Origin: a virus
Taxonomy: Duplodnaviria; Caudoviricetes
IMG/VR virus record: IMGVR_UViG_3300018475_000104
Location: 1 to 64,000 of that record
DNA: 64,000 bases
Direction: 5' to 3' (one strand)
Shown: piece by piece, positions 509 through 56,225 of the stretch
Layout: each line of letters starts with the position of its first letter
Numbering within the stretch: the first letter of the stretch is position 1
Program-made: the position numbers and the translations under genes
The notes under the pieces: model-generated
What the model was told of the DNA's origin: nothing
Seen by the model: only the letters and a program-made list of their open reading frames with translations
Databases searched by the model: none

Positions 509-610
509 AAATATGTTGTGGTGTCATAAGGGCAGACTTTGCATCGTTAATCCACAAAAGTTTCACCGCTTGGTGCCCCTGCGCAGATTTGAACTGCGGA
601 CACCGTGATT

Positions 611-1099
611 TTTTAGTCCTTCAGAATTGGCAATTACAAAGTTTCTAACACTTTTTCTAGTTTAAAATCTTCTGCAAACAAAATATTCTTTGTTTGCCCA
701 TTTTTTGTTGGCACAAATCTTATTCTTTGACTTCTTTTTCCACACAATTCATAAGGAACAAGATAGCATTGTCCATTATAAATTGTAGCAAAGAAATCTA
801 CATCTTCTTCTGAATAAGATAAGTTTAAAGTACCTTTAGTGTTTGTATGACTTGTACTCGTGGCGAACTCTAAAAATGCTTCTTCTTTATAAGTTCCAGT
901 TTTAACTTGAATCTTATATAGAGAATGATTTATGTCCACAATAAAATCATACTTTGAACTCTGAACCATCGGCTTAGAAACTAAAATTCCCAATTTTAGA
1001 AATTCCAAAGCCACTTGTTGTTCTGTAATTTCTCCTATAAAATGACTACTTAGCATAATATCAACTCCTACTAAGTAATTGCCATTCTACATGAGTCTA
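611..1099 (-). mobile_element. Endonuclease-carrying anticodon-loop insertion with complementary ends (not a group I intron)
   Basis: Only about 43 and 23 nt flank the ORF; ends pair (TTTTTAG/CTAAAAA, AGAAT/ATTCT, GGCAATTA/TAATTGCC); no terminal G or P7 core. Confidence 0.75.
634..1056 (-). CDS. PD-(D/E)XK homing endonuclease (I-Ssp6803I / PDDEXK_5-like)
   Basis: G..E..V..F...G..VS.P...SKYDFIVD...KIQVKT motif; AGGAG RBS. Confidence 0.85.
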   Translation of the reverse strand: MLSSHFIGEITEQQVALEFLKLGILVSKPMVQSSKYDFIVDINHSLYKIQVKTGTYKEEAFLEFATSTSHTNTKGTLNLSYSEEDVDFFATIYNGQCYLVPYELCGKRSQRIRFVPTKNGQTKNILFAEDFKLEKVLETL

Positions 1100-1171
1100 A
1101 AAAGTCACGTGCTCTACCAACTGAGCTACAGGAGCATGAGCGTCATTTTGGATACGAGGCGACTAACTCTT

Positions 1172-3268: not shown

Positions 3269-3417
3269 TTTTACCTCCGATAGGAAAAGAAAATCAGATG
3301 GGGTGACAATTCCCATATCTCCATCGCGGCGAAGGCTGCCCGTTCCTTCCTCTGATTTTCTTTTAATGGTGCGGAAGACGGGAATCGAACCCGTATGCCC
3401 TTGGGGCGAGGGATTTT

Positions 3418-4131
3418 CTTACTACTCCATATTACTATGGCCGTATTTCTACGTTGTAGTCTGGACTATGTCTTAACCATATCTTTTGACTTAGGTTGCT
3501 GGTGTATAGTCTCTACACATTTATTTGGCGCAGTTTTTTCCTCTATAAGACTCTGTAAAAGCGTGGCAATTAGGACACAATAAAGCAAAATTTTCTATTG
3601 TATTATTATGTCTGTTGCCATCTTTATGATGTAATTCAAGTGGAATTGGTTTATCTAACCAAGTTTCAAGACCACAGCATTCACATCTATGTTCTTTCAA
3701 CCCTTCTTCTAAGAGCTTAATCCTAACTTTATTTGTTTGAATATCTTTGCTATTGGCTAAATATTCTTCTAAAGTTAATTTAGGCATCTTTTTTGTTAAA
3801 CCTTTTCCAGCTTTATTACCATCATATTTTAAACCAAGTCTGTCTAAAATAGAGTTAATTGTTTTTGGATTGCAAGCGAGTTGTCGCGCCATATAGGCTT
3901 TTGATTGCCCCTCTTGTATCCATTGTTCAATTTCTGCTTTTCGTTCTAAAATATCAGTTCGCATTTCCATCACCTCTCATAATATAAGTGGATTTGGATT
4001 ACACTTACTTTAACTTTTTAGAACGTAAACCAAAATTTAGCACGGCGTCCTCTTGGCTATTCGCCGTTTTAGCCAGCTTCTACTCTTAAAGTTTCCTTTA
4101 AGGCACTCTCCTTTTACGTCTGCCAAGACGA
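3418..4131 (-). mobile_element. Group I intron with HNH homing endonuclease
   Basis: 5' exon ends in U and intron ends in G; R/S elements GTAGAGACTA and AAGACATAGTCC (P7); P3 GCTGG/CCAGC. Confidence 0.92.
3521..3973 (-). CDS. HNH homing endonuclease (intron-encoded)
   Basis: CECCG...LELHHKDGNRHNN..ENFALLCPNCH. Confidence 0.92.
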   Translation of the reverse strand: MMEMRTDILERKAEIEQWIQEGQSKAYMARQLACNPKTINSILDRLGLKYDGNKAGKGLTKKMPKLTLEEYLANSKDIQTNKVRIKLLEEGLKEHRCECCGLETWLDKPIPLELHHKDGNRHNNTIENFALLCPNCHAFTESYRGKNCAK

Positions 4132-4252
4132 AAGTCCCTTGCGTCTGCCTGTTCCGCCACTCCCGCATACTCAGTTGAAGTCTCCCTCAGCCTTGTATAT
4201 ATATTATATCAAAACTTTTGAAATTTTTCAAATTTTAAACACTAAAGAATTT

Positions 4253-8293: not shown

Positions 8294-9754
8294 TCAAAGA
8301 ACAACGGAATCATACATGGGGTCATTAAGCGTTTTCACCATAACATCCCATGCAGTTTCACCTTTTAATGCTCCAAGGAAAGCCTTGAAAGTCGAAGGCG
8401 ACTGACCGCTTACATAGATGACATCTTCGTGAGGATGAAGGAAGGTATCATTGCGCGCCTCTACGTTCCAAAGAACAATCTTAGGCAGCTCATAACCAGC
8501 TTCCTCAAAACGCTTCCGCATGGCATCAATAAAAGAGTACTGACCGTAATCCTTTTCCATTCTGTTAATTTCCATATCGGAAATTACAACCAGCGCTTCG
8601 GGCATATCTTCAGATTTAACATTACCACGAATTGCGTGTTCGAGAATGTAAGAGAAAGCTTTTTCGAGGTCGGTGTCAAGACCAACATCGGTATGCATAA
8701 CCTGGTCAACATTTGCCTTCAGAGTTGCTCCTTCGCGCAGTTGGATGAAGTGAGGCTCGTCAGTAAAAGTCATGTAGAGGTTATGATAGTCACCCTTATT
8801 GCGTTCAGCAAAATAAATTGCCAAACCAATCGAAGTTTCCATAGGACGACCCCACATAGAAGCAGAAACATCAGCCATTACTACTACATTGTGTTCTCCA
8901 TCAATGTAATTAGGAAGAGATTTCCACTGTTCATCAGCCAGCAAATTCCGCTGCCCATGATGCCAATAGCAGTAATTCTTTACCAAGTCATAGGGATAAA
9001 GAGTAGCTGCATTAACCTTTACCTTTCCTTCACTGAGAGCTTCACGATACTCACTAAAGCGCTCTTCATCGTGACGAACAAAAGCATTCGTATACTGCGC
9101 CATTGCCTTAGAAGGTACAGCTTCATAGTCAATCTTATCCCATTCCTGCTCACTCATGAGGCGCTCAGTCACACGAATATGCTTGCGCAGTTCACTTAGC
9201 ATTTTGCGATAAATCTGAGGAGTCGCGCCGATTGCATAAGCTAGGAACTTGGCCTTTTCACGAGTTTCTACGCTGGAAGTGTTAATAGAAGGCATCCACT
9301 TAGCCATCAGAGAACAAGGACGTCCCTTATCCATTGCTTGAACATCACTTATCAACTGGCATTCTACCATATCAATAATATAAGGTTCAACAGGAGTTCC
9401 AATCAACTCAAAAACAGAATCCCAACGATTAAACTTGGGAATATTTCCAAGATTCTCAATGAGATGCCGGGGATAATTCCGCGCAAGCCACTTCAAGCAA
9501 GTGCGAAAAGTGCGCCGCTCACCCAGACCGCCACGAATATTGCCGATATAGAACAGCATCTTGAGCGCGAGTCCTCTATCAGTATTAAAGGCGGCCTCAA
9601 ATTTATCCTCAATTTCCTTTTCGGTACGAGGACGAAGCGCGCCAGCCTGCGCAAACAGGTCAAGCAGAGGATTGTTCAAAGTAGAATACGCAATCGCGCC
9701 GTTTTCGGTTAGCTTCTGATTAGATACCACAGACATAACTTCATTAAACTTCAT
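8294..9754 (-). CDS. DUF2828-family Ro60/TROVE-like protein with C-terminal vWA domain
   Basis: TENGA, IRGGLGER, RWD, AKWMP, LYPY, DVSASM (MIDAS-like), ISDME and WNV motifs; true start 9754 after AAGGAG. Confidence 0.85.
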   Translation of the reverse strand: MKFNEVMSVVSNQKLTENGAIAYSTLNNPLLDLFAQAGALRPRTEKEIEDKFEAAFNTDRGLALKMLFYIGNIRGGLGERRTFRTCLKWLARNYPRHLIENLGNIPKFNRWDSVFELIGTPVEPYIIDMVECQLISDVQAMDKGRPCSLMAKWMPSINTSSVETREKAKFLAYAIGATPQIYRKMLSELRKHIRVTERLMSEQEWDKIDYEAVPSKAMAQYTNAFVRHDEERFSEYREALSEGKVKVNAATLYPYDLVKNYCYWHHGQRNLLADEQWKSLPNYIDGEHNVVVMADVSASMWGRPMETSIGLAIYFAERNKGDYHNLYMTFTDEPHFIQLREGATLKANVDQVMHTDVGLDTDLEKAFSYILEHAIRGNVKSEDMPEALVVISDMEINRMEKDYGQYSFIDAMRKRFEEAGYELPKIVLWNVEARNDTFLHPHEDVIYVSGQSPSTFKAFLGALKGETAWDVMVKTLNDPMYDSVVL

Positions 9755-9784
9755 TTTCAAATCTCCTTTTAACTCATTAAAAGG

Positions 9785-9833
9785 CAAGACGCCACTTTCC
9801 CATAAAGCAAGAAATCTTTGCTGCAAGCGCCTT
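9785..9833 (-). ncRNA. CAGCAA stem RNA, copy C, in the leader of the DUF2828 gene
   Basis: AAGGCGC-TTGCAGCAA...GCGTCTT-G between the promoter (TTGAAT..TATACT) and the RBS. Confidence 0.65.
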
Positions 9834-55413: not shown

Positions 55414-55449
55414 ATAGCCGTGTAGTTTAATGGTAAAACGCCGGTCTCT

Positions 55450-56138
55450 AATTAAAAATTGGACACCAAGAAGGGAAACCGCTTGTGTGAATCGTGTCAA
55501 ATTCGGTAAAACTCTTTAGGAGAATACAATGGCAACAAAAATTTCACTTTTAAGTGACGAAGAATTTTAGAAAATAATTTATGAATCTTATTCCTATGCT
55601 GAATGTTGTAGAAAGATTGGATATAGTGATAAAGGAAGTCATGGCACAGATGCGATAAAGAAAAGATGTCAAGAACTTAACTTGTCTACTAGTCATTTTT
55701 CTAAGACCAAGGCAGCAAATAAAAGTAGCACAAAATATTCTTTAGATGATATATTGATTGAAAATTCTAATTATAAAAACATATCAAGATTAAAAACTCG
55801 ACTAATCAATGAAAACAAACTTGAATATAAATGTGCTATATGTGGTAATACTGGAGAATGGAATAATAATCCCCTAGTTCTTCAATTAGACCATATTAAT
55901 GGAAAACACAACGACCATCGTTTAGAAAATCTAAGATTCTTATGTCCTAACTGTCATTCTCAAACAGAAACATATTCTGGAAAAAATAAAAATAAAGACA
56001 ATACCGAGCTAAATCAGTAAAAAACTGTAAATGTGTAGAGACTAAACGGCACGAACCTAAACCCAATTTGGGCATGGTTAAGATATAGTCCAGACTACAA
56101 CACAAATAATTGTGGCCATGGTGACATGGAGTAGTATG
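55450..56138 (+). mobile_element. Group I intron with HNH endonuclease
   Basis: P1 TCT|AATT/AATTGGA with U.G at the splice site; P3 TCGTGTC/GGCACGA; GTAGAGACTA and AAGATATAGTCC (P7); terminal G. Confidence 0.92.
55529..56020 (+). CDS. Intron-encoded HNH endonuclease (in-frame TAG at codon 14, 55568-55570)
   Basis: AGGAG RBS then ATG 55529; CAICG...LQLDHING..NDHRLENLRFLCPNCHSQT. Confidence 0.88.
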
Positions 56139-56225
56139 AAAACCGTAATATCCTTCTGACGGAGGTTATCTGGGTTCGAATCCCAGCACGGCCGCCAATC
56201 AAATATTTTACTGGAGGACAGTCCA

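Follow-up and report, generated by a model that had tools for sequence, protein, structure and literature searches.

Introns in the tRNA genes of bacteria and phages are taken to be group I ribozymes. One of them, the mobile group I intron situated within the anticodon loop of the Synechocystis PCC 6803 tRNA-fMet gene, encodes I-Ssp6803I, an enzyme of the same family as that of the element described here, and its site presumably also follows nucleotide 36. In archaea and eukaryotes, tRNA introns are removed by EndA or Sen nucleases together with RtcB or Trl1; the canonical position is 37/38, the junctions lie in 3-nt bulges, and some archaeal introns of this bulge-helix-bulge (BHB) type likewise carry homing-endonuclease genes. 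According to a review from 2014, the phage introns known by that time were all in protein genes and none in a tRNA gene (PMC3984707). For animal mRNAs, a study describes SOS splicing, in which the paired inverted ends of DNA transposons mark the excision and RTCB re-joins the flanks (PMC12779559, Nature 2025). Here we describe an insert in a phage tRNA-Lys(UUU) gene which is a member of a large family of homing-endonuclease elements that lack a ribozyme and reside in the anticodon loops of phage tRNA genes. No description of ribozyme-less tRNA inserts of this kind was found in the full-text literature.

The analysed DNA (the window) comprises the first 64 kb of a 109.5-kb phage record of IMG/VR, which is 89% complete and has a G+C content of 36.8%. 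The window starts with an array of tRNA genes on the minus strand, in which the tRNA-Lys(UUU) gene is split (Table 1). Joining the exons in silico results in a 76-nt tRNA-Lys(UUU) whose stems are free of mismatches and include one U-G pair (ARAGORN). Default ARAGORN overlooks the gene, and a run that permits introns detects it with a misplaced junction. Because standard tRNA annotation misses split genes, the tRNA counts of phages are too low. The central part of the 5' exon is identical in intact phage tRNA-Lys genes, and the exact 28-nt joined sequence is present without interruption in six other phage contigs; comparison with these contigs makes the insertion point unique between U36 and A37. 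The preliminary description had claimed two intact tRNA halves with a 489-nt insertion after U36, with which both the coordinates and the 76-nt joined tRNA agree. It had also stated that the reading frame occupies all but about 66 nt and that the insert does not end with G. Indeed, 43 nt before and 23 nt after the reading frame, 66 nt together, are non-coding, and the last nucleotide is A. Near the tRNA array, a 510-residue protein with DUF2828 and DUF7788 domains is encoded at 8294-9826 on the minus strand.

Table 1. Components of the interrupted tRNA-Lys(UUU) gene, in order of transcription
Feature	Position	Strand	Content and basis
tRNA-Lys(UUU) 5' exon	1135..1100	-	nt 1-36 (36 nt, last nucleotide U36); acceptor 5' strand, D arm, anticodon stem 5' strand, C32 U33 U34 U35 U36
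Insert between nt 36 and 37	1099..611	-	489 nt
5' arm of the RNA rod	1099..1076	-	In order: UAG (pairs with CUA), A opposite A, CU, loop CAUGU (contains UGUA), AGAAU, GGCAAUUA; from sequence, fold and covariation in relatives
Remaining 5' leader	1075..1057	-	AGGAG 8 nt before ATG (read from the sequence)
PD-(D/E)XK homing endonuclease gene (PDDEXK_5, I-Ssp6803I family)	1056..634	-	140 residues, stop codon included in the coordinates
3' arm of the RNA rod	636..611	-	Starts at the stop codon; in order: UAAUUGCC, AAUUCU, GAAGGA, CUA, final AAA pairing with the anticodon UUU; from sequence, fold and covariation
tRNA-Lys(UUU) 3' exon	610..571	-	nt 37-76 (40 nt including CCA); A37 A38, anticodon stem 3' strand, variable loop, T arm, acceptor 3' strand, ACCA

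The encoded protein matches Pfam PF11645 over profile positions 3-137 of 138 with 95.5 bits (cut-off 26.1; E 3.7e-27), phrog_5018, and I-Ssp6803I itself (PDB 2OST; E 5.6e-7), so that the Pfam and 2OST matches bear out the earlier assignment to the I-Ssp6803I-type PD-(D/E)XK enzymes. In a Foldseek search with its AlphaFold model (pLDDT 88), the best four matches are the chains of 2OST (TM 0.61-0.74), followed by Hjc and EcoRV, and the model is not near the tRNA-splicing endonucleases. The residues D37, Q50 and K52, which form the catalytic D...QxK, are invariant in eight relatives, and D37 and the Q-V-K motif align with the corresponding residues of 2OST. The endonuclease reading frame is intact at nearly all loci of the family, the exceptions being one frameshift (in a contig of about twofold coverage) and one short fragment (L061). 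This fits either the purging of dead copies or a requirement of the protein itself for removal of the insert. The reading frame within a tRNA-Pro insert (L010:1419-2304, the same as L076) contains five in-frame TAG codons and ends with TAA, and the array includes a tRNA(CUA); it is a TAG-recoded homing endonuclease and not a pseudogene.

Searches with the protein and with an alignment of its relatives yielded 51 loci on viral contigs, 79 metagenome loci (of 178 hits) and four contigs of MAGs. A survey of homologous reading frames for flanking tRNA halves, as proposed in the preliminary description, found such halves, with the reading frame inside the split tRNA, at 42 of the 51 loci on viral contigs and at 69 of the 79 from metagenomes. 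The other metagenome loci are mostly cut by contig ends or overlooked by ARAGORN, while the other viral loci are mostly free-standing genes between tRNAs. The family thus comprises about 110 split tRNAs from rumen and gut phages with roughly 13 anticodon types (UUU, UGU, GUU, GAU, UGG, UCU, CAU, AGU, ACG, UUC, UUG, and others). A nucleotide search of a GenBank phage set with the locus gave no match. In 110 of 111 split genes, a 36/37 junction is possible that rebuilds a seven-nucleotide loop with U33 and purine 37; because U33 and R37 were the selection criteria for the junction, this number means that a solution exists. The junction rule is validated by masking the anticodon, since in 26 of 37 cases the intact tRNA to which the body is then most similar has the same anticodon. 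As read from the sequences, the rule is that the insert is located at 36/37, that its last three nucleotides pair with the anticodon, and that a covarying helix extends the anticodon stem. The insert of the window, with its PDDEXK_5 reading frame, combines UUU/AAA with the subsequent UAG/CUA.

The limits of the family were explored in several directions. A scan of genomes for split essential chromosomal tRNAs, whose interruption would have made splicing obligatory, gave only four hits, all of them beside tRNA genes and on large contigs of Clostridia MAGs that are maybe phage; three of these are split tRNAs. Among the family loci, there is no split suppressor tRNA in a TAG-recoded phage, and the one "tta" anticodon call turned out to be a mis-registered Val-type gene. 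A pattern scan of the viral contigs for Lys-type rods that are decayed or lack the reading frame gave the known loci and chance matches only. Other unusual tRNA genes were met in these arrays. The tRNA-Ile(GAU) gene of a related phage (L069:14250-14466) has a 135-nt insert without reading frame between A35 and U36, whose 3' end resembles a T arm, an acceptor strand and ACCA, and which therefore represents a third kind of tRNA insert. In another phage, tRNA-Lys(UUU) is interrupted at 34/35 by a true group I intron of 454 nt with an HNH remnant (L075:11589-12136). The same tRNA species thus hosts both kinds of inserts at different sites. Finally, ARAGORN assigns Lys(ttt) with a 2-nt "intron" to a tRNA-like gene (L072:14338-14427) whose variable arm is long and whose anticodon loop has 9 nt.

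According to the preliminary description, the ends of the insert pair with each other, prolong the anticodon stem and bury the anticodon. Its further idea, that the buried anticodon might evade anticodon nucleases such as PrrC, finds no support in the present analysis. The minimum free energy fold of the whole precursor, which keeps the cloverleaf (z = -6.05; 0/100 shuffles fold as well), contains the first two pairings named there as a whole and the third mostly. In 85 distinct contexts, the pairs 34:-1, 35:-2, 36:-3 and +1:-4 are formed in 84, 83, 84 and 84 cases, respectively, each by five to six pair types. The 33:37 pair is found in 85/85 contexts, U33 and a purine 37 having been required at the choice of the junction. 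For the first 38 contexts, 94% of the pairs are formed; a shift of the partner by 1-3 nt lowers this share to 43-60%. Since the positions covary across the family, the pairing of the rod exceeds chance. The helix of the window reads UUUUUAG/CUAAAAA, and the relatives have UCA/UGA, UCG/CGA and CA/UG as intronic pairs; beyond the junction helix, the subfamilies differ. As shown by covariation, the last three nucleotides of the insert pair with the anticodon, those before them pair with the beginning of the insert, and the anticodon stem runs on as a helix with the reading frame in its end loop. Both junctions are situated inside this helix, on opposite strands and 3 bp apart. That there is no clear bulge-helix-bulge, as noted earlier, holds for the whole family: from 33:37 through +1:-4, every position forms its pair in 83 or more of the 85 contexts. 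A BHB tRNA intron, which would have two 3-nt bulges 4 bp apart, was rejected, and the motif is excluded, because there is no bulge at either junction.

The existence of uninterrupted alleles implies that the element is mobile. The cultured Enterococcus phage EFP01 (KY549443) is the only one of about 31 sister phages whose tRNA-Asn(GUU) contains such an insert, and about 29 sister Schiekvirus phages have an intact tRNA-Asn at the same place with flanks that are 92-99% identical. The split tRNA-Asn of EFP01 (L078, KY549443.1:104108-106915, and L079) is unannotated. Between the window and a second Lys-type locus (L002), the enzymes are 86% identical and the central parts of the exons are identical, whereas the acceptor stems differ in both strands yet are paired; such a pattern is like what a short co-conversion tract would leave. 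At the DNA level, the enzyme very probably cuts uninterrupted tRNA-Lys at the anticodon and homing spreads the element. An I-Ssp6803I-type enzyme would cleave the intact gene there, and repair of the break from an interrupted copy would copy the element in, always between nucleotides 36 and 37. Relatives of the enzyme are also found free-standing beside tRNA genes in Pectobacterium phage My1 and in Kuttervirus phages. At three further loci (L039:666-1162, L055:650-1340, L180:700-1300), free-standing homologs between tRNA genes have inverted repeats of 10-17 bp around the reading frame. Because these are bracketed too, the stem-bounded layout is independent of a location within a tRNA. At another locus (L042), a truncated tRNA-Arg adjoins the reading frame.

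If the insert were to remove itself, a ribozyme should be present. An Rfam scan of 571-1135 with E values up to 10 found no Intron_gpI core, while a comparable scan detects the cores of both true group I tRNA introns in the same phage; seven homologous loci gave no group I match with Rfam either. In the 12 Lys-type inserts, only 35-66 nt are non-coding (35-48 nt in the most compact ones), and synonymous codon identity among these 12 relatives is flat along the reading frame (0.45-0.69), so that no conserved RNA is hidden in it. Across the family, the last nucleotide of the insert is G in 11/85 contexts, and the 5' exon ends with G, C or A in 15/85. On account of the missing core, the short non-coding part, the flat synonymous conservation, the terminal A, and a nucleotide 36 other than U in relatives, a group I intron was rejected. 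This is what the preliminary description had proposed, and a core within the reading frame, sought by Rfam and by synonymous conservation, was not found. A degenerate or very compact group I intron with a core overlapping the reading frame would suit the enzyme family, which was first met in a group I tRNA intron, and the U at the end of the 5' exon of the Lys genes. However, the same observations speak against it, as do the G or C at the end of the 5' exon in relatives and the fact that the true group I introns of these arrays are at 34/35 and not at 36/37. This reading is already largely refuted and we regard it as extremely improbable. Somewhat less improbable, but still quite unlikely, is a small undescribed self-splicing or self-cleaving ribozyme in the rod, whose catalytic part would be the conserved internal loop near the junctions. 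In the Lys group, this loop consists of A opposite A, C-G, and then UGUA or AGUA opposite GAA, where UGUA/GAA may resemble a loop E motif, and it is conserved within the group while the flanking helix covaries. However, its sequence and its distance from the junction vary (+4 in Lys, +8/+9 in Thr, Asn and Arg, +6 in Pro), no unpaired nucleotide is kept family-wide, the junctions are base-paired unlike known ribozyme cleavage sites, and there is no Rfam ribozyme match inside the insert. A hammerhead-like reading of CUGAAGGA, judged by eye, did not fit the consensus.

The two group I introns of the phage are worth a description of their own. The tRNA-Leu(UAA) gene (3367-4166, minus strand), which served as internal positive control, contains a group I intron of 714 nt behind U34, with its joints at 4131/3418. 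This intron ends with G, has a weak Rfam Intron_gpI match at 3441-3617, and includes a reading frame for a 150-residue HNH endonuclease (3973..3521). Directly downstream of tRNA-Leu, a skipping-rope RNA (RF02924) is found at 3290-3359 on the minus strand (60.4 bits, gathering score 36.7). The other intron is far from the array, in a type-II tRNA at 55416-56197 (plus strand); it extends over about 689 nt from U55449 to G56138, matches Intron_gpI with E 0.0036, and also contains an HNH reading frame. Removing it results in a 93-nt tRNA with the anticodon CUA, an amber suppressor. The phage may translate TAG as sense in some genes.

In our estimate, the insert is removed by proteins and the halves of tRNA-Lys are re-joined with a probability of about 0.47; a new class of protein-spliced introns is a live hypothesis at about even odds. 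Proteins would excise the insert while the tRNA body would hold the halves together for re-joining, which would restore a working tRNA-Lys. The two cuts on opposite strands of the helix, 3 bp apart, would generate 3-nt 3' overhangs, a geometry that would suit a dimeric nuclease acting across the groove. The nuclease might be the element's own endonuclease or a double-strand RNase of the host. Owing to the self-complementarity of the anticodon stem, the left half and the centre of the homing site recur on the exon side of the helix, which makes the own endonuclease a candidate. I-Ssp6803I is said to cut on either side of the anticodon, leaving 3-nt 3' overhangs; by analogy, if the family cuts so, the same cut on the hairpin would hit both junctions exactly. 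It is with slightly less than even confidence that we suggest that the helix offers its junctions to a nuclease, possibly to the PD-(D/E)XK enzyme of the insert, which would then act on its DNA site copied into RNA, and that a ligase re-joins the tRNA. Two junctions within a perfect helix fit no known splicing endonuclease. BHB enzymes require bulges, RNase III leaves 2 nt and not 3, and no nuclease is known to cleave a perfect RNA helix at a stagger of 3 nt. For bacteria or phages, the literature searched gave no report of tRNA splicing by proteins alone.

The preliminary description had suggested searching the genome for RtcB or Rnl ligases, and this search came out negative: in the phage record, at its completeness of 89%, there is no gene for RtcB, Rnl1, Rnl2, RNase III, EndA or a LigT-like protein. 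PF01974 (the EndA family) has no match in the record, while the positive controls matched in four archaea. The ligase would have to be supplied by the host in this phage. RtcB is encoded in two of 50 related records, one of them being EFP01 (E 9e-60), and no link between split tRNAs and RtcB is seen across the 50 records. Rnl2-like ligases (PF09414) are found in 16 of 20 related records, in nine of them above the cut-off, and Rnl1 in four of 20; Rnl-type RNA ligases are common in large phages anyway. To our knowledge, neither EndA nor the SOS splicing factors AKAP17A and CAAP1 are known in bacteria.

Removal by proteins has to be weighed against an unspliced selfish endonuclease gene for which the tRNA, inactivated by the insertion, would serve as landing site, as transcription unit, and as a scaffold for folding. 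The chimera would be trimmed by RNase P and by 3' processing, its message would be protected by the closed cloverleaf and the continuous rod against exonucleases and against cleavage within the A/U-rich loop, and with about 20 tRNAs in the phage, the loss of a single one would be a small cost that the drive at co-infection exceeds. The inverted repeats around free-standing relatives indicate that the stem belongs to the gene cassette and has a role apart from splicing. The reading frame next to a truncated tRNA-Arg, the growth of EFP01 as an isolate with its tRNA-Asn split, and the lack of a ligase or splicing nuclease gene in the phage record agree with such a gene as well, and so does the observation that copies without reading frame are missing and that the reading frame is intact almost everywhere, as would be expected if dead copies were purged. 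In addition, RNAs placed into a prolonged tRNA anticodon stem by the 'tRNA scaffold' method of Ponchon and Dardel from 2007 reportedly accumulate unspliced in E. coli. However, nearly all endonuclease genes inside functional genes that we know of are removed at the RNA or protein level or leave working pieces. The conserved exons had been brought forward against simple inactivation in the preliminary description. This argument is weaker than it may seem, because homing re-seeds intact genes, as seen in EFP01 compared to its about 29 sisters, because selection on the endonuclease transcript could also keep the cloverleaf, and because free-standing relatives have the bracketing stem although no tRNA is there to be restored; intact exons can be explained by recent homing or by such selection. 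None of the 110 split genes shows decay. The joined tRNAs are paired as well as 174 intact neighbours. Of 109 loci, a single one has an intact spare of the same anticodon nearby, and the five 10-kb arrays with a split gene are all devoid of such a spare; in one phage, two tRNA genes are split and an intact copy of either is missing. In the context-by-position comparison, 251 of 255 cells retain the pairing with the anticodon, and about 13 tRNA species have each acquired it afresh; mere stability would not seem to call for such strictness. Furthermore, the true group I introns in tRNA genes of the same arrays keep their ribozymes, which suggests that splicing is selected in these arrays. Considering both sides, we think that an unspliced gene is possible, at odds well short of even.

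Removal could also happen to the DNA. An endonuclease or junction-resolving activity might cut the hairpin or cruciform of the inverted ends in single-stranded or replicating DNA, so that some copies of the phage genome would regain intact tRNA genes. The left half and the centre of the homing site recur in the hairpin, its junctions are where a 3-nt 3'-staggered cut would fall, and the closest folds after I-Ssp6803I are Holliday-junction resolvases. However, mixed alleles are not seen in the assemblies, about 420 nt separate the arms, and there are no direct repeats for slippage. We give little credit to this route.

Irrespective of its removal, the element is common (178 metagenome hits), has no ribozyme, and follows a strict rule of structure in its tRNA genes. 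Splicing of the insert would mean that a protein-based route for tRNA splicing exists in bacteria or their viruses, which would be, as far as found in the literature, the first protein-dependent tRNA splicing outside archaea and eukaryotes, and the insert would be a candidate natural substrate for the RtcB of bacteria and for the RNA ligases of phages. Without splicing, a selfish gene would trade a phage tRNA for a stable transcript, which bears on the erosion of tRNA arrays. As EFP01 is in culture, the question of splicing can be directly tested.

The element combines features of several known systems. With the Synechocystis intron it shares the enzyme family, the mobility, and the location in a tRNA anticodon loop. 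However, that intron has a self-splicing ribozyme of about 200 nt, whereas the present insert has 66 non-coding nucleotides, no core and no terminal G; its relatives also sit after G36 or C36, and it is part of a phage tRNA array and not of a cyanobacterial chromosome. If removed by proteins, it would resemble the archaeal and eukaryal tRNA introns in adjoining the anticodon and in pairing with it, but its junctions are at 36/37 and both within a continuous helix. Like T4 SegB and the "genes in pieces", it is a selfish nuclease gene that targets the tRNA regions of phages; unlike SegB, the reading frame is placed precisely inside the tRNA and exon and intron pair. The intervening sequences of bacterial 23S rRNA, which are cut by RNase III and not re-joined, are also helix-bounded inserts in a stable RNA gene without ribozyme. 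However, the rRNA works in pieces while a tRNA broken in the anticodon loop is not expected to decode, and the stagger is 2 nt there compared to the 3 nt required here. Nearest in concept is SOS splicing, as an analogy only, because this process belongs to animals and its excision is imprecise (PMC12779559). In the engineered 'tRNA scaffold' RNAs, finally, a foreign RNA is likewise carried on a prolonged anticodon stem and processed at the tRNA ends; there the arrangement is artificial, and here the RNA so carried is that of a translated gene, which spreads by homing.
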